Shown: positions 1-12,573 of the stretch, in pieces | Numbering within the stretch: the stretch's first letter is position 1 | Layout of the letters: each line of letters opens with the position of its first letter | Source of the DNA: a virus | Taxonomy: Duplodnaviria; Heunggongvirae; Uroviricota; Caudoviricetes | Length of the DNA stretch: 12,573 nt | Direction: 5' to 3' (one strand) | IMG/VR virus record: IMGVR_UViG_2737471828_000010 | Span: 1-12,573 of that record | The notes under the pieces: model-generated | The model's input: the letters and a program-made list of their open reading frames with translations, nothing else | The model's database searches: none | Told to the model about the DNA's origin: nothing | Position numbers and translations under genes: made by a program

Positions 1-603
1 GCAGCCACGCAGACCTTTGATGGTATTGCACAGAATATGGCGGCGATGCTGACCGGCAGTGAGCAGAACTGGCGCAGCTTCACCCGTTCCGTGCTGTCCA
101 TGATGACAGAAATTCTGCTTAAGCAGGCAATGGTGGGGATTGTCGGGAGTATCGGCAGCGCCATTGGCGGGGCTGTTGGTGGCGGCGCATCCGCGTCAGG
201 CGGTACAGCCATTCAGGCCGCTGCGGCGAAATTCCATTTTGCGTCCGGGGGATTTACGGGAACCGGCGGCAAATATGAGCCAGCGGGGATTGTTCACCGT
301 GGTGAGTTTGTCTTCACGAAGGAGGCAACCAGCCGGATTGGCGTGGGAAATCTTTACCGGCTGATGCGCGGCTATGCCACCGGCGGTTATGTCGGTGGCA
401 CCGGAAGTCCGGCGCAAATGCGGCGTTCAGAGGGTATCAGATTTGAGCAGAACAACAACGTGGTGATTCAGAACGACGGTACGAATGGTCTGCCAGGTCC
501 ACAAATGCTGAAGGCGGTGTATGACATGGCCCGCAAGGGTGCCCGTGATGAAATTCAGGCACAGATGCGTGATGGTGGTCAGTTCTCCGGAGGTGGACGA
601 TGA
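1..603 (+). CDS. H: Tail tape measure protein, C-terminal fragment (5' end lies upstream of the window)
   Basis: The frame is open from base 1 with no stop before 601..603; the first in-frame ATG at 37 is not the true start. The Gly-rich C-terminal translation (...GGYVGGTGSPAQMRRSEG...KAVYDMARKGARDEIQAQMRDGGQFSGGGR) matches my recollection of the lambda gpH C-terminus. Its stop overlaps the M start (ATGA at 600..603). Confidence 0.9.
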   Translation, partial: AATQTFDGIAQNMAAMLTGSEQNWRSFTRSVLSMMTEILLKQAMVGIVGSIGSAIGGAVGGGASASGGTAIQAAAAKFHFASGGFTGTGGKYEPAGIVHRGEFVFTKEATSRIGVGNLYRLMRGYATGGYVGGTGSPAQMRRSEGIRFEQNNNVVIQNDGTNGLPGPQMLKAVYDMARKGARDEIQAQMRDGGQFSGGGR

Positions 604-929
604 AAACCTTTCGCTGGAAAGTGAAACCCGGCATGGATGTGGCTTCGGCCCCTTCCGTCAGGGAAGTGCGCTTTGGTGATGGCTATTCCCAGCGAGCGCC
701 TGCCGGACTGAATGCCGACCTGAAAACGTACAGCGTGACGCTTTCTGTTCCTCGTAAGGAGGCCACGGCGCTGGAGTCGTTTCTGGCAGAGCACGGAGGC
801 TGGAAAGCCTTTCTGTGGACGCCGCCTTATGGTTACAGGCAGATAAAGGTGACCTGCGCAAAATGGACGTCGCGGGTCAGTATGTTGCGTGTTGAGTTCA
901 GCGCAGAGTTTAAACAGGTGGTGAACTGA
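600..929 (+). CDS. M: Tail tip assembly protein M
   Basis: 109 aa, the same length as lambda gpM, and near-identical from the first residues (MKTFRWKVKPGMDVAS...VEFSAEFKQVVN). Start overlaps the H stop and the stop overlaps the L start (TGATG at 927..931), consistent with translational coupling. Confidence 0.93.
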   Translation: MKTFRWKVKPGMDVASAPSVREVRFGDGYSQRAPAGLNADLKTYSVTLSVPRKEATALESFLAEHGGWKAFLWTPPYGYRQIKVTCAKWTSRVSMLRVEFSAEFKQVVN

Positions 930-1627
930 TGCAGGATATCCGGCAGGAAACACTGAATGAATGCACCCGTGCGGAGCAGTCGGCCAGCGTGGTGCTCTGG
1001 GAAATCGACCTGACAGAGGTCGGTGGAGAACGTTATTTTTTCTGTAATGAGCAGAACGAAAAAGGTGAACCGGTCACCTGGCAGGGGCGGCAGTATCAGG
1101 CATACCCCATTCAGGGGAGCGGTTTTGAACTGAATGGCAAAGGGGCCAGCGCCAGACCAGTGCTGAGCGTGTCCAATCTGTATGGTCTGGTCACCGGGAT
1201 GGTGGAGGATTTGCAGAGTCTGGTTGGCGGAACGGTGGTCCGACGTAAGGTTTACGCCCGTTTTCTGGATGCGGTGAACTTCGTCAACGGAAACAGTGAC
1301 GCCGACCCGGAGCAGGAGGTGGTCAGCCGCTGGCGCATCGAGCAGTGTAGCGAACTGACGGCGGTTGGTGCCTCCTTTGTGCTGGCCACACCGACGGAAA
1401 CGGATGGCGCCGTTTTTCCGGGGCGCATCATGCTGGCCAACACCTGCACCTGGACCTATCGCGGCGATGAGTGCGGTTATCACGGTCCGGCGGTCGCGGA
1501 TGAATATGACCAGCCGACGTCCGATATCACGAAAGATAAATGCAGCAAATGCCTGAGCGGCTGTAAGTTTCGCAATAACATCGGTAACTTTGGCGGCTAC
1601 CTTTCCATTAACAAACTTTCGCAGTAA
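929..1627 (+). CDS. L: Tail tip assembly protein L
   Basis: 232 aa, the same length and closely similar sequence to lambda gpL as I recall it. Cysteine-rich C-terminus (CTWTYRGDECGYHG...CSKCLSGC), consistent with the Fe-S cluster described for gpL. Confidence 0.93.
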   Translation: MQDIRQETLNECTRAEQSASVVLWEIDLTEVGGERYFFCNEQNEKGEPVTWQGRQYQAYPIQGSGFELNGKGASARPVLSVSNLYGLVTGMVEDLQSLVGGTVVRRKVYARFLDAVNFVNGNSDADPEQEVVSRWRIEQCSELTAVGASFVLATPTETDGAVFPGRIMLANTCTWTYRGDECGYHGPAVADEYDQPTSDITKDKCSKCLSGCKFRNNIGNFGGYLSINKLSQ

Positions 1628-1632
1628 ATCCC

Positions 1633-2376
1633 ATGACACAGACAGAATCAGCGATTCTGGCGCACGCCCGGCGATGTGCGCCAGCGGAATCGTGCGGCTT
1701 CGTGGTGAGAACGCCGGAGGGGGACAGGTATTTACCCTGCGCGAATATTTCCGGTGAGCCGGAGGCGTATTTCCGGATGGCTCCGGAGGACTGGCTGCGG
1801 GCAGAAATGCAGGGTGAGATTGCGGCGCTGGTCCACAGTCACCCCGGTGCTCTGCCCTGGCTGAGTGAGGCCGACCGGCGGCTGCAGGTGCAGAGTGGTC
1901 TGCCGTGGTGGCTTGTCTGCCGGGGGGCGATTCACAAGTTCCGCTGTGTGCCGCATCTTACCGGGCGGCACTTTGAGCACGGGGTGACGGACTGTTATGC
2001 GCTGTTCCGGGATGCGTACCATCTGGCGGGGATTGCGCTGCCTGATTTTCATCGTGAGGATGACTGGTGGTGTCACGGTCAGAATCTCTATCTGGATAAC
2101 CTTGAAACACAGGGTTTTTACCGGGTCTCACCGCATGAGGCACAGGCAGGCGACGTGCTGCTGTGTTGTTTTGGCTCGCCTGTTGCCAATCATGCCGCCA
2201 TTTACTGTGGTGACGGCGAGCTGCTGCACCATATTCCTGAACAACTGAGCAAACGAGAGAGGTACACCGACAAATGGCAGCGACGCACACACTCCGTCTG
2301 GCGTCACCGGGCATGGCACGCATCTGCCTTTACGGGGATTTGCAACGATTTGGCCGCCGCATCGACCTGCGTGTGA
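1633..2376 (+). CDS. K: Tail assembly protein K (JAMM/MPN plus NlpC/P60 two-domain protein)
   Basis: 247 aa ORF with a JAMM-type motif H-x-H-x7-S-x2-D (HSHPGALPWLSEAD, residues 68-81) and a candidate upstream Glu in PAESCGF (residue 19), followed by an NlpC/P60-like Cys/His region (GVTDCY...NHAAIY). The classic 199-aa lambda K annotation would correspond to Met49 (nt 1777). No strong Shine-Dalgarno precedes 1633, so the exact start is uncertain. Confidence 0.85.
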   Translation: MTQTESAILAHARRCAPAESCGFVVRTPEGDRYLPCANISGEPEAYFRMAPEDWLRAEMQGEIAALVHSHPGALPWLSEADRRLQVQSGLPWWLVCRGAIHKFRCVPHLTGRHFEHGVTDCYALFRDAYHLAGIALPDFHREDDWWCHGQNLYLDNLETQGFYRVSPHEAQAGDVLLCCFGSPVANHAAIYCGDGELLHHIPEQLSKRERYTDKWQRRTHSVWRHRAWHASAFTGICNDLAAASTCV

Positions 2377-2951
2377 AAACGGGGGCAGAAGCCATCCGGG
2401 CGCTGGCCACACAGCTCCCTGCGTTTCGCCAGAAACTGAGCGACGGCTGGTATCAGGTGCGGATAGCAGGGAAAGATACAGGAGAGAGAGAGCTGTCTGC
2501 CCGTCTGCATGAGCCGCTTCCTGACGGCGCAGTGATACACCTGGTTCCTCGGACAGCCGGTGCTAAAAACGGCGGTGTTTTCCAGATTGTTCTGGGGGCT
2601 GTCGCCATTGCGGCTTCGTTTTTTACTGCAGGAGCCTCTCTGGCTATGTGGGGCGCCGCATTGAGTGCAACAACACTGAGCGCCACTACAGTCCTGTTTT
2701 CTCTCGGTGCCAGTATGATTCTGGGGGGTGTGGCGCAGATGCTGGCCCCGAAACCGAAAACGCCCCGCATGCAGACAACGGATAACGGTAAGCAGAATAC
2801 CTATTTTTCCTCACTGGATAACATGGTTGCCCAGGGCAATGTTCTGCCGGTTCTGTACGGTGAAATGCTCGTGGGATCGCGGGTGATTTCACAGGAAATC
2901 AGCACGGCTGATGAGGGGGGCGGCGGTCAGGTAGTGGTGATTGGTCGCTGA
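2274..2951 (+). CDS. I: Tail assembly protein I
   Basis: 225 aa, closely similar to lambda gpI (MAATHTL.LASPGMARICLYGDLQRFGRRIDLRVKTGAEAIRALATQLP...GGQVVVIGR). The start lies inside the 3' end of K (about 100 nt overlap, different frame), as in lambda. Confidence 0.9.
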   Translation: MAATHTLRLASPGMARICLYGDLQRFGRRIDLRVKTGAEAIRALATQLPAFRQKLSDGWYQVRIAGKDTGERELSARLHEPLPDGAVIHLVPRTAGAKNGGVFQIVLGAVAIAASFFTAGASLAMWGAALSATTLSATTVLFSLGASMILGGVAQMLAPKPKTPRMQTTDNGKQNTYFSSLDNMVAQGNVLPVLYGEMLVGSRVISQEISTADEGGGGQVVVIGR

Positions 2952-2968
2952 TGCAAATGTTTTATGTG

Positions 2969-2993
2969 AAACCGCCTCCGGGCGGTTTTTTTT
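2969..2993 (+). terminator. GC stem-loop followed by an 8-T run between I and J (intrinsic terminator or attenuator)
   Basis: aaaCCGCCtccgGGCGGtttttttt lies directly after the I stop (2949..2951) and before the J ribosome binding site (GGAGAG at 2996..3001). Confidence 0.5.
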
Positions 2994-3007
2994 ATGGAGA
3001 GTAAGTG

Positions 3008-6000
3008 ATGGGTAAAGGTGGCGGTAAGGCGCATACGCCCCGTGAAGCCAGAGATAACCTGAAATCCTCCCAGTTGCTGAGTGTGATTGACGCCATCAGT
3101 GAAGGACCGGTTTATGGTCCGGTTGACGGGCTGAAAAGTGTCCGCCTGAATGGTACGCCGGTACTGGACAGCGGGGGGAATACCAACTTTTCCGGTGTCA
3201 CGGTGGTGTTCCGTTCCGGTGAACAGGAGCAGACACCGCCGGAGGGGTTTGAATCCTCCGGCTCCGAGACGGTACTGGGTGCGGAAGTGAAATACGACAC
3301 GCCGATAACCCGGACCATCACGTCGGCAAACATCGACCGTCTGCGCCTGACCTTCGGGGTGCAGGCACTGGTGAAAACCACCTCAAAGGGGGACAGGGAG
3401 CCGTCGGAAGTCCGCCTGCTGGTTCAGATACAGCGTAATGGTGGCTGGGTGACGGAAAAAGACATCACCATTAAGGGCAAAACCACCTCGCAGTATCTGG
3501 CATCGGTGGTGGTGGATAACCTGCCGCCGCGCCCGTTTAATATCCGGATGCGCAGGATAACGCCGGACAGCACCACGGACCAGTTGCAGAACAAAACGGT
3601 CTGGTCGTCATACACCGAAATCATCGATGTGAAACAGTGCTACCCGAACACGGCACTGGTCGGTGTGCAGGTGGATTCTGAGCAGTTCGGCAGCCAGCAG
3701 GTGAACCGCACTTACCATTTTCGTGGTCGTATTCTGCAGGTTCCGTCGAACTATAACCCGCAGACGCGGCAATACAGCGGTATCTGGGACGGAACGTTAA
3801 AACCGGCATACAGCAACAACCCGGCCTGGTGTCTGTGGGATATGCTGACCCACCCGCGCTACGGCATGGGGAAACGTCTTGGTGCGGCAGATGTGGATAA
3901 ATGGGCGCTGTATGTCATCGGCCAGTACTGCGACCAGTCAGTGCCGGACGGTTTTGGCGGCACGGAGCCGCGCATCACCTGTAATGCCTGGCTGACCACA
4001 CAACGTAAGGCGTGGGATGTGCTCAGCGATTTCTGCTCGGCGATGCGCTGTATGCCGGTATGGAACGGGCAGACGCTGACGTTCGTGCAGGACCGGCCAT
4101 CGGATAAGGTGTGGACCTATAACCGCAGTAATGTGGCGATGCCGGGTGATGGCGCGCCGTTCCGCTACAGCTTCAGCGCCCTGAAGGACCGCCATAATGC
4201 CGTTGAGGTGAACTGGATTGACCCTGACAACGGCCAGGAGACGGCGACAGAGCTTGTGGAGGACACGCAGGCCATTGCCCGTTACGGTCGTAACGTCACG
4301 AAGATGGATGCCTTTGGCTGTACCAGTCGTGGGCAGGCGCACCGCGCCGGGCTGTGGCTGATTAAAACAGAACTGCTGGAAACGCAGACCGTGGACTTCA
4401 GCGTGGGTGCTGAAGGGCTTCGCCATGTACCGGGCGATGTCATTGAAATCTGCGATGATGACTATGCCGGTATCAGCACCGGCGGGCGCGTGCTGGCGGT
4501 AAACAGCCAGACCCGGACGCTGACGCTCGACCGTGAAATCACGCTGCCATCCTCCGGTACCACGCTGATAAGCCTGGTTGACGGAAGTGGCAATCCGGTC
4601 AGCGTGGAGGTCCAGTCCGTCACCGACGGCGTGAAGGTAAAAGTGAGCCGTGTTCCTGACGGCGTTGCAGAATACAGCGTGTGGGGGCTGAAGCTGCCGA
4701 CGCTGCGTCAGCGCCTGTTTCGCTGTGTGAGTATCCGTGAGAACGATGACGGCACGTATGCCATCACCGCCGTGCAGCATGTACCGGCAAAAGAGGCCAT
4801 CGTGGATAACGGGGCGCACTTTGACGGCGACCAGAGCGGCACGGTGAATGGTGTCACGCCGCCAGCGGTGCAGCACCTGACTGCCGAAGTCACCGCAGAC
4901 AGCGGGGAATATCAGGTGCTGGCGCGCTGGGACACGCCGAAGGTGGTGAAGGGGGTGAGCTTCCTGCTCCGTCTGACCGTAACAGCGGACGAAGGCAGTG
5001 AGCGGCTGGTCAGCACGGCCCGGACGACGGAAACCACATACCGCTTCACGCAACTGGCGCTGGGGAACTACAGGCTGACAGTCCGGGCGGTAAATGCGTG
5101 GGGACAGCAGGGCGATCCGGCATCGGTATCGTTCCGGATTGCCGTACCAGCAGCGCCGTCGCGGATTGAGCTGACACCGGGCTATTTTCAGATAACCGCC
5201 ACGCCGCATCTTGCGGTTTATGATCCGACGGTGCAGTTTGAGTTCTGGTTCTCGGAAAAGCGGATTGCGGATATCAGGCAGGTTGAAACCAGCGCGCGTT
5301 ATCTTGGTACGGCGCTGTACTGGATAGCCGCCAGTATCAATATCAAACCGGGCCATGATTATTACTTTTATATCCGCAGTGTGAACACCGTTGGCAAATC
5401 GGCATTCGTGGAGGCTGTTGGTCAGCCGAGTGATGATGCATCCGGTTATCTGGATTTTTTCAAAGGCGAGATAGGGAAAACCCATCTGGCTCAGGAGCTG
5501 TGGACGCAGATTGATAACGGTCAGCTTGCGCCTGACCTGGCTGAAATCAGGACGTCCATTACGGATGTCAGCAATGAAATCACACAGACCGTCAATAAGA
5601 AACTGGAAGACCAGAGTGCAGCGATCCAGCAGATACAGAAGGTTCAGGTTGATACAAATAATAATCTGAACAGCATGTGGGCTGTGAAGCTGCAACAGAT
5701 GAAGGACGGACGCCTTTATATTGCGGGTATCGGTGCCGGTATTGAGAATACGCCAGCAGGAATGCAGAGTCAGGTGCTGCTGGCGGCAGACAGGATTGCG
5801 ATGATTAATCCTGCGAATGGCAACACAAAGCCGATGTTTGTTGGTCAGGGTGATCAGATATTCATGAATGAAGTGTTCCTGAAATATCTGACGGCTCCCA
5901 CCATTACCAGTGGCGGTAATCCTCCGGCGTTTTCCCTGACTCCGGACGGGCGGCTGACGGCGAAAAATGCGGATATCAGCGGTAACGTGAACGCGAACTC

Positions 6001-6487
6001 CGGGACACTCAACAACGTCACGATAAATGAGAACTGCCGGATTCTGGGAAAACTGTCAGCCAACCAGATTGAAGGCGATATTGTTAAAACAGTGGGTAAG
6101 GCTTTTCCCCGGGACTCCCGGGCACCGGAGCGGTGGCCATCAGGGACCATTACCGTCAGGGTTTATGACGATCAGCCGTTTGACCGGCAAATTGTTATTC
6201 CGGCGGTGGCATTCAGTGGCGCTAAGCATGAGAGAGAGCATACTGATATTTACTCCTCATGCCGTCTGATAGTGCGGAAAAACGGTGCTGAAATTTATAA
6301 CCGTACCGCGCTGGATAATACGCTGATTTACAGTGGTGTTATTGATATGCCAGCAGGCAGAGGTGTAATGACACTGGAGTTTTCGGTATCAGCATGGCTG
6401 GTGAATAACTGGTATCCCACCGCAAGTATCAGCGATTTGCTGGTTGTGGTGATGAAAAAATCCACAGCCGGTATCACGATTAGCTGA
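3008..6487 (+). CDS. J: Tail tip / host specificity protein J (central tail fiber)
   Basis: About 1159 aa. The N-terminus [34 protein letters not shown]... and most of the length are closely similar to lambda gpJ as I recall it. The ORF track begins at GTG 3005, but ATG 3008 with GGAGAG 6 nt upstream is the more likely start. The last ~150 aa and a block near nt 5460-5700 diverge from lambda. Confidence 0.93.
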
Positions 6488-6505
6488 ATTTTATAATCCA
6501 TATAC

Positions 6506-6531
6506 TGGCGCCAGAAATGGCGCCTTTTTTA
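6506..6531 (+). terminator. Intrinsic terminator downstream of J
   Basis: Palindromic stem GGCGCC (6507..6512) / GGCGCC (6519..6524) with loop agaaat, followed by TTTTTT (6525..6530), 20 nt after the J stop. Confidence 0.65.
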
Positions 6532-6584
6532 TTGTTATTCCTGAATCCTCTCTTCCGGGGCTGACATTGACTTATGGAGTACAT

Positions 6585-8306
6585 ATGGCCGTACAGATAT
6601 CTGGTGTACTGAAAGACGGTGCGGGTAAACCGGTGCAGGCGTGTTCAATTGAATTGCGGTCCAGAAAAACGAGTCCGACGGTGATTGTGCACATTGTGGC
6701 GGAATGTATTACGGACAGTAACGGGCGGTATTTAATCGAAGCCGAGCCAGGATTTTATGATGTTTTTCTTCTCCGTGAAGGGTGGGCTCCGGTAAAAGCC
6801 GGTGAGATTTATGTCACACCGACGGATAAGCCGGATACGCTGAATGCATTTCTGGATGCTCCCAAAGATGGCGATTTGCGTCCTGAGGTGATGAAACGCT
6901 TTGAGATAATGGTGAATACCGTTATTACGCTGTCTGAGCAGGTTACCCGTGATAAGGAGGCAACAGGCGCAGACGCCGCGGCAGCGGCAGAATCGGCGTC
7001 CGCTGCCCGGGAAAGTGAAAGGAAATCGCAGAATTATGAGGTGCAGTCTCAGAAAAATGCAGAGTCTGCAGCCGGAAGTGCGCAGGAGGCCGGACAATAT
7101 GCTGTGGAGGCTGCACAGGCAAGAGATAATACGCAGACCCTTGCTGATGCGGTGCAGAAAAATGCAGAGGTTGTGGCAGAACAGCGTCAGCAGGTGAATA
7201 TACTGGCTGCAGAAATGGCAGAAAATGCCGGACAGGTTCAGCAGGATAAACAGGATACTGAGCGGCTGCTGGAGCAGGCACAACAGGCAGCCAGTGAGTC
7301 TTCAGCCAGTGCCGTGGAGTCGGGGACGCATGCCAGCGAAGCTGCACAGAGTGCACGGCAGGTAAGCAGTGATTTACAGAAGACGGTAACGGCACGTAAT
7401 GAGGCAGAGGGTTTTGCCACAGAGGCCGCCAGTCGTGCAGAAGAGAGTGCACAGATAAAAGCGCAGACGGAGTCCGTGGCTCTGAATGTTCAGCATGTGG
7501 CAGACAGTGTTGTGGCTGTAAGCCAGTCTGTGGAGCTACAGGCCGGGCAGGTGCAGCAACTGGTCAGCCAGGCGGAAGACAGTGCCACGACAGCAGGTGA
7601 ACATGAGCAGGGGGCACTGAAGGCACTGGAGGAGGCCAGGGAGATTGCAAAAACGCCAGGACCACAGGGAGAGCCAGGACCGCAGGGGGAGACCGGCCCA
7701 CAGGGCCCCAGTGGTGAAAAGGGAGAGAAAGGGGACCGGGGCGATACCGGGCCTCAGGGAGAAAAAGGTGAGAAAGGCGATAAAGGTGATACCGGTGCCC
7801 GGGGAGCTACCGGCCCACAGGGGCCTCAGGGACCCATGGGACCCAGCGGAGTTTACCCGGAAGACGGGATAAAGACTGCGAAAAAATTCACGGGTATTCT
7901 GGCTCATGGTTTTATGTATTCTGACCTTCAGTTTCCGTTGCTGAAATATAACCACTACCTTGCCTGTGAAGACCACCCCGTTCCGGGTGCCGCGGGAAAT
8001 TATTCGTATGGTCTGATGTGGCAGGTTCCGACGAATGAGAATGTTTCAGGTCAGATTTTCCTTAACTGTATGGGACAGGCATTCATCAGGGCTTACAGCG
8101 GACTGGGTACCACTTCATGGTGGCAGTTTGCCGGTCGTCCGGTAGCCGGTGGTGTGGGGAGTTACCTGTTCTGTGCTTCTCAGGATGCGGTCAGTTACGG
8201 AGATGAACTGGCCGGAGAGCGGCTTGACCCGGTACAGTCAGGAATATGGATGGCCTGCGGAAATGCAGAAGCTGAAGAGAAAATGCTTTTTCTGAGGGTG
8301 AAATAA
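6585..8306 (+). CDS. stf: Side tail fiber protein (Stf-like) with an Ala/Gln/Glu-rich shaft, a collagen-like tract and a distinct C-terminal domain
   Basis: N-terminus [24 protein letters not shown]... resembles the lambda Stf N-terminus ([17 protein letters not shown]...). ATG 6585 has GGAG 5 nt upstream; the track start TTG 6567 is less likely. Residues ~125-360 form a low-complexity A/Q/E/S-rich region, and the C-terminal ~150 aa is a globular-looking domain I cannot assign. Confidence 0.8.
7659..7850 (+). repeat. Collagen-like Gly-X-Y repeat tract (64 residues) inside the tail fiber gene
   Basis: Uninterrupted G-X-Y periodicity, [64 protein letters not shown], visible in the DNA as repeated ggN-ccN-cag and ggN-gaN-aaa units. 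Confidence 0.85.
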
Positions 8307-8917
8307 TGGATACCAGGAATTCAGAAGCGGACGTGCGCAATGCCCGTTTTAATGAAGACGGCAGCATTACCTGTGAGGTGTTCATGGCAGACCGTTCTGA
8401 TGACAGTCATCGGGTATATGTACCTTATACTGCCAGAGCTTCAGACCCGACAGAATTCGGGTTAAGGCTCTGGTCAGGACTGATATCAGGGGACCTTGGT
8501 GAAGTCACGCCGTTTGTGGTGACAGAGGAGATACTGGAAAAGGCCAGAAATCAGAAATACGGTGAAATCAGTCGCTGGCGTGACAGCCAGGAGAACAGCA
8601 GTTTTGTTTTTGAATTCAGTGGTCATCGCTGGGATGCCGGAAAGGCGTCACAGTCCAGACTGACACCTGTTGTTGCGGTGGCAGGAAACGGGCTGTTGCC
8701 GGAGCATTTTTTCTGGACGGATGCGGATAATCAGGATGTCACTCTGACGCCGGAAGAGCTGATACAACTGGATACTGCGATGAATGCGGCGATGGTGATG
8801 CAGGGGTTTAAAATCCACGAACGCCAGCGCCGGATGAAAGAAGAAGTGGCAGGGCTGACCGCACTGCCGGATATTCGTGCGTATCCTGTTGGCTGGCCGG
8901 AGGGTGATGATGAGTAA
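8306..8917 (+). CDS. Putative tail fiber assembly protein (Tfa-like chaperone)
   Basis: 203 aa ORF whose ATG overlaps the fiber stop (TAATG at 8304..8308), with a GAGGGTG ribosome binding site upstream. Position immediately after the fiber gene and a C-terminal segment (...TPEELIQLDTAMNAAMVMQGFKIHERQRRMKEEVAGLTALPDIRAYPVGWPE) reminiscent of Tfa C-termini. Assigned by context plus weak similarity. Confidence 0.6.
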   Translation: MDTRNSEADVRNARFNEDGSITCEVFMADRSDDSHRVYVPYTARASDPTEFGLRLWSGLISGDLGEVTPFVVTEEILEKARNQKYGEISRWRDSQENSSFVFEFSGHRWDAGKASQSRLTPVVAVAGNGLLPEHFFWTDADNQDVTLTPEELIQLDTAMNAAMVMQGFKIHERQRRMKEEVAGLTALPDIRAYPVGWPEGDDE

Positions 8918-9290
8918 GTTCACCACACCGGCCATTCTGGAGATGCTGGATGATTACCGCTGGCGGCTGGTTGAGCCGTTTGAATTCTGGCTGACGGATA
9001 ACCCGGATGATGTGATTTATGTTCCGGAGGGATATGTGACGGACCTTGCCAGTGTGCCACGGCTTCTGTGGGCTCTGTTCCCGCCGCATGGTCGTTATGC
9101 GAAAGCGGCGATTATTCATGACTGGCTGTATGACAATGCCCTGCGCACGAAGGCGGAAGCGGACAGGATATTTCTGGATGCGATGACGGTGCTGGGAGTT
9201 CCACGCTGGCGCAGACGGTTGATGTATCTTGCGGTAAGGTTGTTCGGGAAAGGGAAATACAGCGACACGCAACAGGGGACCTGTTGCTGA
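8907..9290 (+). CDS. DUF1353-like small protein (tail-fiber-associated, function unknown)
   Basis: About 127 aa from the ATG pair at 8907/8910, with GGAGGG at 8899..8904, overlapping the stop of the preceding gene. Translation MMSKFTTPAILEMLDDYRWRLVEPFEFWLTD...YVTDLASVPRLLWALFPPHGRYAKAAIIHDWLY resembles the DUF1353 signature as I remember it. The track start GTG 8877 is less likely. Confidence 0.55.
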   Translation: MMSKFTTPAILEMLDDYRWRLVEPFEFWLTDNPDDVIYVPEGYVTDLASVPRLLWALFPPHGRYAKAAIIHDWLYDNALRTKAEADRIFLDAMTVLGVPRWRRRLMYLAVRLFGKGKYSDTQQGTCC

Positions 9291-9320
9291 AAAAAGTCTG
9301 CCATACAGATGTATGGCAGA
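9290..9320 (-). terminator. Leftward intrinsic terminator candidate (H1)
   Basis: Perfect stem CTGCCATA (9298..9305) / TATGGCAG (9312..9319), flanked on the + strand 5' side by six A's, which gives a 3' U-run on the - strand transcript. Confidence 0.5.
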
Positions 9321-9493
9321 AAAGGTATCCAAGGGAGAAGACACTGCAGTGCAGTATCCCTTATGGTCGGCGGTGATTATATAACCACAGAACGGCGCAT
9401 CAAACAGTTTTACGTACCAGTTGTTAAATTTGTGTATTATATCAAACAAATTGGTAACATGCTGCTGTGTGTAAATGTGATGTTAACATGGTG

Positions 9494-9529
9494 ATATGTG
9501 TTACTGACTGGTATTGCCTGTTCACCTGG
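9494..9529. repeat. ~36 nt repeat, copy 1 of 2 (atatgtgttactgactggtattgcctgttcacctgg)
   Basis: Matches 10569..10609, which carries a short internal insertion (ccacg/accacgt). Both copies are in the ORF-poor AT-rich region. Confidence 0.6.
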
Positions 9530-9564
9530 TCTGTGAAGATATGCAACATGGCCCATGTTGTAGC

Positions 9565-9597
9565 AAAAAAAGCCTGCCATACAGATATATGGCAGGC
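9565..9597 (-). terminator. Leftward intrinsic terminator candidate (H2, paralog of H1)
   Basis: Stem GCCTGCCATA / TATGGCAGGC with loop cagata, preceded on + by seven A's. On the - strand this reads as a GC stem followed by TTTTTTT. Same stem as H1 with a 1-nt loop difference. Confidence 0.6.
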
Positions 9598-9805
9598 AAA
9601 CGTCTGTTACGGGAAAACAAATGAATGTCGGGTATAGTACCCCCTTACTTGACTCCTTCACAATTATGCATCAATAATGAAACATATAAAGCATTTGTAT
9701 TTTCTTATTGCTGGTTTTGTGTATTGCGTCTCAAAACTAAATTATTTTATTACTCTCATAATAAATGAGGTAAATTATATATATAGTTATTTATTCTGTT
9801 TTTAT

Positions 9806-9834
9806 AAAAAGAAGCCCACAGATTACTGTGGGCT
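9806..9834 (-). terminator. Leftward intrinsic terminator candidate (H3)
   Basis: Stem AGCCCACAG / CTGTGGGCT with loop atta, preceded on + by tataaaaagaa (a U-rich tail on the - strand). Confidence 0.55.
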
Positions 9835-10085
9835 AAGCATTAGCATTATTTATATTAGTATAGTTACGGTTGCTGTAAGCATATTAGCTTACGGAAATGT
9901 TGATAACTCTGATGGGAATCACAAAAAAATACCAGTGCTGAAAATGACAGTACTGGTAAAAATATGATGAGTATTTGCAAAAAATACAACCGAATTGCTC
10001 TGTAAGGTTCACTACCTCTTTTATTCTACTATAAATTATAGTACATAGTTCTGTGATACTTATCACGCTGTATATTCATTGGTAT

Positions 10086-10110
10086 AAAAAGGCCCGTATG
10101 GATACGGGCC
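10086..10110 (-). terminator. Leftward intrinsic terminator candidate (H4)
   Basis: Stem GGCCCGTA / TACGGGCC with loop tgga, preceded on + by tataaaaa. Confidence 0.55.
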
Positions 10111-10207
10111 TGGCTTACGGGATAGGCTAACTGAGTAAGTAGGGTTATGGCTTACTCGCCGGCAGTATACCATATAAAACAACGGACAATTCTTTGCGGT
10201 AAATCAT

Positions 10208-10236
10208 AAAAAAAGACCCGTACCGTACGTGCGGGT
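10208..10236 (-). terminator. Leftward intrinsic terminator candidate (H5)
   Basis: Stem ACCCGTAC / GTGCGGGT (one non-Watson-Crick position) with loop cgtac, preceded on + by seven A's. Confidence 0.45.
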
Positions 10237-10354
10237 GTTAATTGCTGGTGAAGCTGTCAGAGGTGCATATTATTATAATAACGCTTGTAGACGTTTGTTA
10301 TTATTTATGCCCTCTATTACTGGTACTGTGATTTCCATCACAAAAATACATTAT

Positions 10355-10382
10355 AAAAAGAAAGCCCGCAGATTATGCGGGC
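10355..10382 (-). terminator. Leftward intrinsic terminator candidate (H6, paralog of H3)
   Basis: Stem GCCCGCA / TGCGGGC with loop gatta, preceded on + by tataaaaagaaa. Differs from H3 by a compensatory base-pair change (A-T in H3, G-C in H6). Confidence 0.55.
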
Positions 10383-10401
10383 AATAGCTTATGCATGAGA
10401 T

Positions 10402-10426
10402 GAACGACTCCGGGTCGTTTATTTTT
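10402..10426 (+). terminator. Weak rightward hairpin with T-run (possible + strand terminator)
   Basis: Stem AACGAC / GTCGTT with loop tccgg, followed by tatttttc. Short, AT-rich stem. Confidence 0.3.
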
Positions 10427-10568
10427 CTTAATAAGAAGGACTACATTTATATTCTACTATGTAAGTATGGTATTGATGATGTGAAGTATATCTCAAATTA
10501 ACGCAATAAGAAAAAGCAACAACCCATTTCTGAATGTGAGAGAACTGCTAATATAGCAATATGTGTTC

Positions 10569-10609
10569 CTGACTGGTACCACGTATTGCCTGTTCCAGGA
10601 GCATATTTG
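10569..10609. repeat. ~36 nt repeat, copy 2 of 2 (atatgtgttcctgactggtaccacgtattgcctgttccagg)
   Basis: Direct repeat of 9494..9529. Confidence 0.6.
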
Positions 10610-10665
10610 CCTGGATTCAGATTGCTCGTAATTCACCACGGCTATAAATCGTAAAGAAAATTGCA

Positions 10666-10718
10666 GCACGCCCTATGCAAGAACGTGCCACGGCTGGCTG
10701 GCAAACTTTCGATAGTGC
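10666..10718. repeat. ~50 nt imperfect direct repeat, left copy (hairpin with loop tatgcaaga ... cgatagtgc), left flank of the peptidase cassette
   Basis: gcacg-ccctatgcaagaa-cgtgc-cacggctggctggcaaactttcgatagtgc aligns with 12269..12321 (first 15 nt tatgcaagaacgtgc identical; roughly 80 percent identity over the remainder). Confidence 0.65.
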
Positions 10719-10998
10719 GAGTATTGAATGATTTCCAGTCGTTATTGATTCTACGCATTAATTTATGAACAAACTACTTATCTGTGGTCTTTCGGTCTGT
10801 AATAGGGGCCCTGTCTGAAATGGAGTTTCAGGATTAAGCGATATCGTACTCACCCTTAGTCCCACCTGATAAATCTGGAGAACGGAAGCACTGCCAGATG
10901 ATGGTGGTGGCTACAATTACTCACACTCAATATTCGGAGCAATCACGTACATCATCACGATGCTAGGAATGCGGAGTTTGATGACTGTCCAGTGATGT

Positions 10999-11029
10999 AA
11001 AAAGAGACCCCGGCGTAGTAGCCGAGGTC
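10999..11029 (-). terminator. Leftward intrinsic terminator candidate for the peptidase gene
   Basis: Stem GACCCCGGC / GCCGAGGTC (one mismatch) with loop gtagta, 22 nt downstream of the - strand stop at 11051..11053. On the - strand it is followed by tctcTTTTT. Confidence 0.5.
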
Positions 11030-11050
11030 CTCAATCAGAAACTACAATAT

Positions 11051-12055
11051 TCACTGAGTGCCTTCATCTGGTTGCTCTGCTGGTAAGGTTCCAGCCTCTT
11101 CTTCAATTTCCGCATGTTTTCCATCGCTTCCCTGGACAGGTTCATCCCTTGGCGGTTCTGCTCTTCCTGAATTTTGGTCAGAGATTTCATCTCCTTCCTG
11201 AATTCTGCTGTTGTCATGGGAATCTTCCTCTGCGTTAGTTGTTTCATATTGTTTTTTAGGAGTTAAATCTTTAATCACCGGTTTGTCGAAGATAGAGATT
11301 TCGCCTGACGAAATCATCTCACCAAGAACTTCGTACAGGTTGGCTGCAAAGTCTGTAGGACTCTCAACATGGTTGAATAGTTCCCTCGCCTCTTTACGGT
11401 CTATCACAAAACCATGGGCTGGATATCCAGCGATCAACTTGCCTAAGGAGCTTTCCTTAAGATTTTTCGAGTGACTATTCAAACGCTCCCCATAGGAAAG
11501 CGCTATGTTCATTGCTCGTTGATGCTCCCCGAGTTTGATGGGGTCTATCTGTGAGGCCATCGGCGATATGATTGCTTCAGTAAGCTTAGCAGCAATATCT
11601 GCAGACATCTTCGTGCTAATTTGGTTTCTGTACTTTATATCAAGTACGTATGATCTAAAGGTCGAAATAGCGCACTCTTTTATTTCATCAATCGCCGTTG
11701 CGATAACAAGGCCCGAGCTCAATTCGCCGATCTCATCATTTTTCTTAAGTTGGATGTCTAGAGGACCAAGCTCACCCATATCACCAATCACGAGCTTATG
11801 AGCGGCGACAGCCATCAAGGTTCCAGCACTTTTGCAAGGGCCAACAACTAGAACGGTGATGTGTTCATAGTTGTGTTGCAAAGCGCGGCCAATTCTATAT
11901 CCTGCGCTGGGATCACCGCCATAGGTAGCGACGCAAAAAAGAACATTTTTTTGTAAACCATGGTTAGTTTTTCTTTCTTTAATCGCTTTGGTGATGTCGT
12001 GATGACCAGAGCGGTGAACATCGCCTATGTATACGTAAACGTCTGTATCTTGCAT
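11051..12055 (-). CDS. Stand-alone ClpP/SppA-fold serine peptidase-like protein (S49/SDH-like) with an acidic low-complexity C-terminal tail
   Basis: 334 aa ORF with ribosome binding site AGGGA 5 nt upstream of the ATG (- strand). N-terminal ~220 aa follows the ClpP-fold pattern: ATYGGDPSAGYRIGRAL echoes the ClpP NSPGGSVTAG segment, and VVGPCKSAGTLMAVAAHK echoes the ClpP/SppA nucleophile segment (GQAASMG type), giving a candidate catalytic Ser in CKSAG. The last ~70 aa are Asp/Glu-rich and low complexity. No His in the position of the ClpP catalytic His, so a Ser-Lys dyad (SppA-like) is possible. Confidence 0.6.
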   Translation of the reverse strand: MQDTDVYVYIGDVHRSGHHDITKAIKERKTNHGLQKNVLFCVATYGGDPSAGYRIGRALQHNYEHITVLVVGPCKSAGTLMAVAAHKLVIGDMGELGPLDIQLKKNDEIGELSSGLVIATAIDEIKECAISTFRSYVLDIKYRNQISTKMSADIAAKLTEAIISPMASQIDPIKLGEHQRAMNIALSYGERLNSHSKNLKESSLGKLIAGYPAHGFVIDRKEARELFNHVESPTDFAANLYEVLGEMISSGEISIFDKPVIKDLTPKKQYETTNAEEDSHDNSRIQEGDEISDQNSGRAEPPRDEPVQGSDGKHAEIEEEAGTLPAEQPDEGTQ

Positions 12056-12268
12056 TTTAATCCCTATGAATAAAATGGTTGAATTTAATGCTGTTCCTCA
12101 GCCAAAGCACTATATCGATAACCAAAATACCTCAGATTTGTCGAGAAAACTATCTGGAAAATTAGGCTAACTCTTTGAATCTTCGGAATGCAAAAGAGAT
12201 ACTTTCTCTGGATGTGCGCCAGGTTGATGTGTAAGTATGGCGGTCAGAATAGTCTCGAAAAACCGCAG

Positions 12269-12321
12269 GCACGTTGTATGCAAGAACGTGCTGTGGTTGG
12301 CAGGTGAACTTCCGATAGTGC
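12269..12321. repeat. ~50 nt imperfect direct repeat, right copy; also a terminator-like hairpin directly downstream of the DinI-like gene
   Basis: gcacgtt-gtatgcaag-aacgtgc then tgtggttggcaggtgaacttccgatagtgc. On the - strand the hairpin is followed by a T-run (complement of aaaaa at 12258..12262). Confidence 0.6.
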
Positions 12322-12324
12322 TCA

Positions 12325-12573
12325 TTAGTGAACAAACCACTCGTCAGCAGACTCCCAGGTATCTTTCAGAGTTTCCTGCACAAAAGTTTTAGCTGAATCT
12401 TTATCGGCTGTGCGCGTAACAGAAAGGCCATCGTTGCTGGTGGCTTTTACGATCACCTCTACATCGTCATAACGCTTACTGATGCGTCGGGTTAATTCTT
12501 CCTTTAACGCATCCACAGCACTGGTTGGCATTTTAGTCATTTTTTCTTTGGCTATGCAGATTTCAATACGCAT
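12325..12573 (-). CDS. dinI: DinI-family protein (DNA damage-inducible protein I-like, prophage-encoded)
   Basis: 82 aa: [37 protein letters not shown]...[15 protein letters not shown]. Start and C-terminal WESAD-WFV motif match E. coli DinI as I recall it (MRIEVTIAK...ETWESADDWFVSE). The start codon is the last three bases of the window, so the promoter is outside it. Confidence 0.85.

Follow-up and report, generated by a model that had tools for sequence, protein, structure and literature searches.

What does a stretch of prophage DNA encode when it displays a row of hairpins all facing one way and no recognizable gene? The question arises in a 12,573-nucleotide (nt) sequence from a virus of the Caudoviricetes (positions 1 to 12,573 of IMG/VR record IMGVR_UViG_2737471828_000010; this whole stretch is hereafter the window), which makes up the right arm of a lambdoid prophage. 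An interval flanked by the convergent late operon and by the int end has a GC content of 29-44%, against ~54% in the tail genes, and an original prediction had read it as a candidate array of small-RNA (sRNA) genes marked by six terminators. Our analysis indicates that positions 9291-10495 probably form a head-to-tail array of seven independent sRNA genes on the minus strand; whether most of these units are under the control of cyclic AMP (cAMP)-CRP seems to us about evenly balanced. Tandem, short, leftward units making prophage sRNAs are, as judged from sequence, the best-supported reading of the region, on the strength of their -10 and CRP-type elements and of the selective conservation of these elements.

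Each putative gene would have a sigma-70 -10 element followed by ~45-95 nt of non-coding body and closed by an intrinsic terminator; six of the seven units have a CRP-type palindrome (TGTGA-N6-TCACA) upstream. From left to right, with z-scores (z) of the predicted folds, the units are as follows.

9291-9446, minus strand: U1, with a CRP-like box at 9431-9446 (TTTGATATAATACACA, 2 mismatches), -10 TATAAT at 9376-9381, a predicted RNA of ~79 nt (9291-9369; fold -30.3 kcal/mol, z -5.9) and terminator H1 at 9297-9320 followed by six U
9565-9733, minus strand: U2, with a CRP-like box at 9718-9733 (TGAGACGCAATACACA, 2 mismatches), -10 CATAAT at 9663-9668, a predicted RNA of ~92 nt (9565-9656; z -3.9) and terminator H2 at 9572-9597 followed by seven U
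9806-9923, minus strand: U3, with a CRP-type site at 9908-9923 (TGTGATTCCCATCAGA, 1 mismatch), -10 TATACT at 9857-9862, a predicted RNA of ~45 nt (9806-9850; z -4.5) and terminator H3 at 9813-9834
9923-10067, minus strand: U3b, not listed in the original prediction, with a CRP-type site at 10052-10067 (CGTGATAAGTATCACA, 1 mismatch), -10 TAGAAT at 10023-10028, a predicted RNA of ~94 nt (9923-10016; z -1.75, the weakest fold among the units) and a hairpin at 9931-9957 followed by seven U
10085-10172, minus strand: U4, with an extended -10 TGGTATACT at 10164-10172 (TATACT with TG), no CRP-type site, a predicted RNA of ~73 nt (10085-10157; z -4.2) with a 7-bp 5' hairpin, and terminator H4 at 10090-10111
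10209-10342, minus strand: U5, with a perfect CRP-type site at 10327-10342 (TGTGATGGAAATCACA), -10 TATAAT at 10272-10277 (a promoter scan match), a predicted RNA of ~57 nt (10209-10265; whole fold -10.4 kcal/mol) and terminator H5 at 10216-10236 followed by seven U
10355-10495, minus strand: U6, with a CRP-type site at 10480-10495 (TGAGATATACTTCACA, 1 mismatch; perfect in R1 and QA), -10 TAGAAT at 10451-10456, a predicted RNA of ~90 nt (10355-10444; z -2.8) with a 5' hairpin and an A-rich (ARN-like) stretch, and terminator H6 at 10364-10382

All six hairpins originally reported (H1 to H6) lie where they had been placed, and on the minus strand each is a GC-rich stem-loop that leads into a U-run; none is a plus-strand terminator. 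A consensus scan recognizes five of the six as strong terminators, on the minus strand only (9320-9297, 9597-9572, 9834-9813, 10111-10090 and 10382-10364). Confined to the region, the terminator scan yields 5 against 0.9 +/- 1.2 expected in dinucleotide shuffles, and a stricter test demanding perfect stems yields 5 minus-strand terminators in 1.3 kb against 0.08 expected. The remaining hairpin, H5 (10236-10216), is weaker in the window, with an internal C.A mismatch, 5+2 pairs and a run of seven U; in a 71%-identical homologue (locus L005) its counterpart is a perfect 9-bp stem at the same place. The seventh hairpin, at 9931-9957 on the minus strand, is AT-richer and becomes a perfect 10-bp stem in strain R1, where H4 gains one mismatch. 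The paralogy proposed for H1 and H2 holds and extends over the entire ~175-nt units. The A-T to G-C compensatory change between H3 and H6 is also real as read, but as an argument for selection on RNA structure this single event is anecdotal.

When folded, the predicted RNAs show a single-stranded stretch ahead of the terminator and, in most, a hairpin at the 5' end, with z between -2.8 and -5.9 in five of the seven. Besides U1/U2, paralogy is seen between the 3' ends of U3 and U6 and between the promoters of U3b and U6, and the U3b promoter block ATAGTAGAATA is itself repeated (repeat D4). The units are closely packed, one unit's U-run merging into the T-rich flank of the next CRP-type site. 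The U6 5' hairpin (AAACGACCCGGAGUCGUU, 10406-10430) is also, on the plus strand, a hairpin followed by a T-rich run, and so terminator-like; on the minus strand the A-rich, ARN-like run lies ahead of it, and an inverted copy of its flank is found at 10507-10525 (repeat I3).

Upstream of every terminator, at 45-100 nt, lies a -10 element (7/7 units), conserved in copies that are 68-74% identical. When the core TGTGA-N6-TCACA was scanned for with at most one mismatch, the entire 12.6-kb window gave 5 sites against 0.49 expected, a ~10-fold enrichment, and none of 200 shuffles reached 5. Four of the sites, one perfect and three with a single mismatch, fall within 9908-10495 and have T-rich flanks. 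The distance from the center of the box to the 3' end of the -10 element recurs among units, being 62.5 nt in U1, U2 and U5, 36.5 nt in U3b and U6, and 58.5 nt in U3, and a CRP-like site at unit distance accompanies 4 terminators, where shuffles give 0.007. Transcription of the plus strand from the CRP-type sites was considered and rejected, as no -10 element stands at a compatible distance.

Copies of the array in other E. coli genomes offer a further view of what is retained. Pieces of it occur in 41 of 5426 complete E. coli genomes, mainly from cattle, pigs and calves; strains GXU-23-25-310, R1, RM13745 and QA-1986 630 are among the carriers. In the copies in other E. coli islands that are 68-74% identical, half-sites, -10 boxes and terminators are 80-100% conserved, against ~60% for the RNA bodies and 33% for the DNA between units. 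The QA-1986 lineage (71% identical overall) illustrates this pattern: its CRP half-sites are unchanged or nearer consensus, its -10 boxes keep 5-6 of 6 positions and its terminators ~80%, compared with ~60% for the RNA bodies and 33% for inter-unit DNA; in U5 both half-sites are identical and the -10 is retained 6/6, with a body at 62%. Against R1 (91% identity) the CRP spacers differ at 6/24 positions and the half-sites at 2/40, and the U3 site likewise has constant half-sites and a variable spacer in R1 and GXU. Five lineages represent the U1/U2 (H1/H2) unit family, which is found in different islands and in either orientation; the columns that never vary cluster at the -10, at the terminator and in the upstream box (T.T..GA....A.ACA.AAA). 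An nhmmer search with the family profile found no further diverged members in the homologous loci searched. Because regulatory elements and terminators are selectively kept in the 68-74% copies, the units fit independent genes better than a bare stack of terminators. A drifting body amid a retained factor site, promoter and terminator is what would be expected of sRNA genes with evolving seeds, and unlike what a bare terminator stack or neutral junk would leave.

In this context, we put forward that cAMP-CRP would switch most of the array on when glucose is absent, each RNA having an unpaired 5' or middle part, an Hfq-type motif rich in U or in A, and the hairpin of its terminator, and that the RNAs would base-pair in trans with host or prophage RNAs, be they mRNAs or other sRNAs. 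The anatomy, its departure from chance and the selective retention of regulatory and terminator elements are what the sequences show; transcription, CRP dependence, Hfq binding and the existence of any target are inferred. Hints of an Hfq-type sRNA can be read in a U-rich stretch before the U1 terminator, in the (ARN)4-like A-rich run of U6, and in C/U-rich, anti-Shine-Dalgarno-like stretches of U5 (CACCUCU) and U1 (UUCUCCCUU). The diverged, paralogous units would travel as a modular block among prophages and adhesin islands, mostly of livestock E. coli.

Several observations weigh against this interpretation. Promoter-like hexamer pairs are not enriched (7 against 5.8 expected in shuffles of this AT-rich DNA), so the case for promoters rests on conservation and geometry; of the sigma-70 promoters anticipated in the original prediction, what stands is the -10 element ahead of each terminator, generic hexamer pairs being at shuffle level. 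If transcription is assumed to start 7 nt past the -10, the CRP-type sites center at about -43.5 (U3b, U6), -69.5 (U1, U2, U5) and -65.5 (U3), which would make U1, U2 and U5 class I-like and U3b and U6 class II-like, labels that depend on the assumed starts and miss the canonical -41.5 and -71.5 by 1-2 nt. The U1 and U2 boxes match the CRP consensus at 8/10 half-site positions, with ACACA as right half and a variable left G, and could bind another factor or none. U4 has no CRP-type site and shows a degraded promoter and stem in R1; for U3, U3b and U4 support comes only from close relatives (at least 91% identical). As regards RNA structure, which had been expected to show conserved and covarying stems in relatives, the stems are conserved but the covariation is not significant: the H1/H2 family scores 0.167 against 0.156 +/- 0.016 when shuffled (11 sequences, few lineages). 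Few positions of the terminator stem vary in its alignment: one outer pair changes in a compensatory manner, and several wobble substitutions occur. The 5' hairpin is not conserved across lineages. Finally, the rarity of the array (41/5426) and the presence of the insertion sequences (IS) IS200C or IS2 in several loci fit dispensable or decaying DNA.

How, then, do other explanations fare? The units could be transcribed and the palindromes be something other than CRP sites: a different regulator, perhaps encoded by a prophage or island, might use them as operators, or they might be plain inverted repeats passed on when units were duplicated. The imperfect boxes of U1 and U2, with their non-canonical right half, lend themselves to this explanation, and all units may share one ancestral unit, in which case the spacing would be inherited and not selected. 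However, four sites match TGTGA-N6-TCACA at 9-10 of 10 positions within T-rich flanks, the R1 and QA variants shift towards the consensus, and half-sites are fixed where spacers are free to vary. We thus hold this alternative to be doubtful, though one to be taken seriously.

Decay is another way to account for the region: moron cassettes (promoter, gene, terminator) from which the genes have been deleted, or former sRNA genes that are now neutral, AT-rich DNA silenced by H-NS. The adjacent remnant of ykgJ, with its mutated start codon and truncated gene, would be in keeping with such a history, as would the IS200C and IS2 insertions in homologous arrays, the great rarity of the array, the ~60% conservation of the RNA bodies, the non-significant covariation and the mismatches of H5 and H4 in some lineages. 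Yet half-sites, -10 boxes and terminator stems are kept at 80-100% while neighboring bases stand at 33-60%, the box-to-promoter spacing is preserved identically, and no protein-coding remnant is detectable between promoters and terminators. On balance, decay appears an unlikely origin.

The original prediction had itself named a stack of terminators as the alternative. The hairpins would then do nothing but halt leftward transcription from int-dinI-protease or cargo, antisense to the tail operon, and the promoter- and CRP-like sequences would be incidental matches in AT-rich DNA. All hairpins do point in the same direction, converging on the late operon, and the level of promoter-like hexamer pairs is that of shuffles. 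A related prophage, L077 (IMG/VR UViG_2684622582_000011), whose DUF1353 protein is 82% identical to that encoded by the last tail gene of the window, carries downstream of the DUF1353 gene (5385-6900) a sequence-unrelated 38%-GC stretch with 7-8 convergent terminators, and it is this stack at the same position that keeps the insulator explanation alive. On the other hand, the protease gene to the right of the array has its own strong terminator (11030-11005), which would make seven more redundant; the CRP-type palindromes are enriched and stand at two recurring distances from conserved -10 boxes; regulatory elements are conserved where flanking DNA is not; and the same units are found in islands outside prophages, in both orientations, with no tail operon to protect. 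We regard pure insulation as distinctly improbable. The L077 stretch contains at least two paralogous ~85-nt units (CUGUGCUGCAG..CAGCACAAAUC...CCCGUAUCAC hairpin and six U) and a duplicated 3' fragment of the DUF1353 gene, is rare in E. coli (one near-identical genome, E7-1N7) and gives no Rfam match and no strong CRP sites. Since a different, sRNA-like set of 7-8 units occupies the same site there, the position past the DUF1353 gene is suggested to be a hot spot for such arrays.

There is, as first noted, no credible coding capacity in 9290-10500: no ORF of at least 50 amino acids (aa) in the region has a Pfam match above threshold, and none of the homologous genomes has a gene annotated across the array (9291-10500) by the Prokaryotic Genome Annotation Pipeline (PGAP). 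The type I toxin/antisense modules that had been offered as an option, or small-protein genes specifying a short and possibly hydrophobic peptide each, with or without antisense RNA, recall the spacing and tandem layout of the ldr/rdl, ibs/sib and zor/orz repeats and could point to one hydrophobic 96-aa ORF (9677-9967), but are very improbable. None of the predicted RNAs has a conserved small ORF preceded by a ribosome-binding site: U1, U2 and U5 contain no AUG, and the single ORF of U6 is 7 codons long and lacks a Shine-Dalgarno sequence. The 96-aa ORF, the longest of the plus strand and thus opposite to the units, has no Shine-Dalgarno sequence or Pfam match; it traverses terminator H3 as well as a CRP box, and a 4-nt deletion in R1 shifts its frame. 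Nor do promoters form the convergent pairs that typify type I loci.

The seven putative sRNA genes resemble no catalogued family in the collections searched. Rfam, which the original prediction had proposed searching, gave no match in the entire window at gathering thresholds (Rfam 15), and its sensitive mode returned for the region sub-threshold, terminator-driven matches only (AgvB, STnc430, ncS54, Trp leader). A scan for tRNA and tmRNA found none, and BLAST of 9290-10600 had no match among INPHARED phages and PLSDB plasmids. In IMG/VR, five unit-specific DNA patterns retrieved nothing or one chance match (L040), and the 31 matches to the H1/H2 hairpin pattern in GTDB representative genomes were all chance ones in unrelated phyla. 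The hairpin sequences were not found in the literature searched, and publications on CRP, prophage, tandem and tail-fiber sRNAs led only to work on AgvB/AsxR, Pas and Isr, at other loci. Two further identities were rejected: a repetitive extragenic palindrome or bacterial interspersed mosaic element (REP/BIME) or a miniature inverted-repeat transposable element, as there are no terminal inverted repeats and no similarity to the REP consensus; and a retron or ToxI-like repeat array, as the units are heterogeneous and no reverse transcriptase or toxin gene is present.

Outside the window, the array is found in varied surroundings. In another prophage (R1) a YadA-like adhesin gene is inserted between U1 and the remaining units; other copies reside in islands with YadA-like, OmpA-like and fimbrial genes, and in another island near cobU. 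A scan of metagenomes added 16 contigs with array pieces, which represent the same few E. coli variants and so do not widen the sample for covariation. Genes for YadA-like trimeric autotransporter adhesins, with OmpA-family or small hypothetical partners, are repeated neighbors of the array or of parts of it (loci L002, 5920-7693; L005, 8481-13146; L008, 1-1127); these are possibly Eib-like prophage adhesins. In three lineages IS200C lies within the array, between U2-type and U5-type units, where it replaces U3, U3b and U4, and in locus L006 IS2 splits a U2-type unit (IS-bearing segments: L005, 6172-6859; L007, ~6180-6860; L006, 3920-5255). IS elements seem either to strike the array often or to be tolerated there. 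In the window, the U2-U6 block is bracketed by an imperfect direct repeat of ~65-70 nt, D2, with core ACCAGTCAGTAACACATAT.

9481-9545: left copy of D2, core read as ACCAGTCAG[T/G]AACACATAT
10546-10610: right copy of D2, adjoining the ykgJ remnant

The 91% homology with R1 stops within the left copy, at ~9495, and D2 could mark the ends of a mobile or recombining cassette.

The neighboring genes of the window place the array in the cargo region of the prophage.

3005-6487, plus strand: GpJ tail gene
6567-8306, plus strand: tail fiber gene with collagen repeat
8306-8917, plus strand: gene for a DUF4376 protein
8877-9290, plus strand: last tail gene, DUF1353, tail-fiber assembly/chaperone-like (PF07087, E 2e-33; phrog_1158)
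11005-11030, minus strand: strong terminator of the protease gene
11051-12055, minus strand: cargo gene for an SDH/ClpP-like serine protease, in the same orientation as the array
12325-12573, minus strand: dinI

The stop codon of the DUF1353 gene, 7 nt ahead of H1, forms the left boundary of the array. The sole near-identical complete genome is that of E. coli GXU-23-25-310 (97.5% identity), in which the integrase gene and dusA come next; the prophage is integrated at dusA, with the array in its cargo region, between the last tail gene and the protease-dinI-int end. The serine protease (11051-12055, minus strand) has a full-length match to phrog_21683, of unknown function, and matches PF01972 only below the Pfam threshold; PADLOC had no match among the genes neighboring the array, the protease included. 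Its gene is inserted between dinI and the remnant of a ykgJ leader, whose hairpin is duplicated on either side. This remnant of the ykgJ 5' region spans 10608-10778 on the minus strand, with a second partial copy after dinI (12259-12321), and is 81% identical to E. coli K-12 DNA upstream of ykgJ and 76% to the dinI-ykgJ' spacer of Shiga toxin (Stx) phages. It keeps the first six codons of the gene, with the start ATG changed to ACG and truncation after AATCC. About 35 nt ahead of the former start codon lies a conserved hairpin (10663-10691), which differs from K-12 by one C-G to U-A compensatory change (alignment read by eye) and may be an uncharacterized leader or attenuator of ykgJ. Opposite the remnant (10661-10768, plus strand), PGAP calls a 35-aa 'capsid protein', WP_072033272.1, in a homologous genome and on an F' plasmid; having no Pfam match, it looks like a spurious call within a conserved non-coding element.

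Prophage-borne sRNAs rewire host regulation in pathogenic E. coli, the described cases being single genes or convergent pairs near the Q/stx/lysis region. If real, the array would place seven sRNA genes with unrelated bodies under one global regulator in 1.2 kb, a density of sRNA genes that, to our knowledge, exceeds that of any locus described in E. coli. Several new sRNA families would be added, and sRNA genes would be seen to be able to move as a modular cassette between prophages and islands. It would also provide a search rule for unannotated sRNA genes in mobile DNA, namely a factor site, a -10 element and a terminator, repeated in AT-rich, ORF-free cargo. More tentatively, and as a possibility short of a probable one, sRNA genes might constitute a separate class of cargo, with the array as a cassette of heterologous sRNA 'morons' that is flanked by repeats, can be exchanged and has each unit wired to cAMP-CRP. 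Prophages and adhesin islands of livestock E. coli would swap it, linking carbon status to post-transcriptional control of host or phage genes, and the site past the last tail gene would be a general hot spot.

The kind of element is known, in that prophage cargo sRNAs, CRP-controlled sRNAs and tandem sRNA clusters have all been described; the families, and the arrangement of seven genes with one regulator, are new. Many Hfq-bound sRNAs, some of just 51-60 nt, are known from the cargo regions of prophages in pathogenic E. coli (PMC4104026; bioRxiv 10.64898/2026.05.13.724894). The closest in kind are AgvB and AsxR (EcOnc01-03; RF02702/RF02703) of enterohemorrhagic E. coli O157 (Tree et al. 2014, PMC4104026), which are, as the array units would be, cargo ('moron') sRNAs of lambdoid prophages. 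They belong to paralogous families, several copies to a genome, and are convergent with a phage operon; at 51-60 nt they are as short as U5 and U3, with a variable 5' part and a conserved 3' terminator part. However, they lie downstream of PR' and Q near the stx and lysis genes, and not, as the array does, at the tail/int end (PMC4104026), and neither a seven-gene tandem arrangement nor CRP sites are described for them. The AgvB model (RF02702) scores 20.4 bits on 10085-10158 (U4) against a cut-off of 56, mainly through the terminator, and the GcvB-target mimic of AgvB, CACAACA, is absent from the U4 sequence.

Core E. coli sRNAs controlled by CRP, which activates CyaR and McaS and represses Spot 42, are single-copy and conserved across Enterobacteriaceae. 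Like the proposed units, they stand alone, each with a CRP site ahead of its sigma-70 promoter and an intrinsic terminator at the end, and the C/U-rich stretches of U5 and U1 resemble the type of seed found in CyaR. In contrast, the units show no homology to them (no Rfam match) and are rare, horizontally moved and clustered. Tandem paralogous clusters, such as LhrC1-5 of Listeria, OmrA/OmrB of E. coli and PrrF1/PrrF2 of Pseudomonas, consist of near-identical paralogues with the same seed. They share with the proposed array the head-to-tail order of sRNA genes, each with its own promoter and terminator, and a single common regulator; the bodies of the array units are, unlike theirs, largely unrelated, and different targets would thus be expected. 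The LhrC model gave a chance-level match only (19 bits against 110).

Finally, the Pas sRNAs (PasA-D) of enteropathogenic E. coli prophages (bioRxiv 10.64898/2026.05.13.724894) and IsrA-T of Salmonella islands (PMC2330248) are, like the units, intergenic and located in lambdoid prophages or islands, and they parallel them in being Escherichia/Shigella-restricted, variable in copy number and mosaic in evolution, with IS elements nearby. Pas sRNAs are nonetheless common, with hundreds to thousands of matches, and sit by Q, holin, lysozyme and esterase genes or inside structural operons; the units, present in 41 of 5426 genomes and placed downstream of a tail-fiber chaperone gene, are set apart from Pas by these descriptions.

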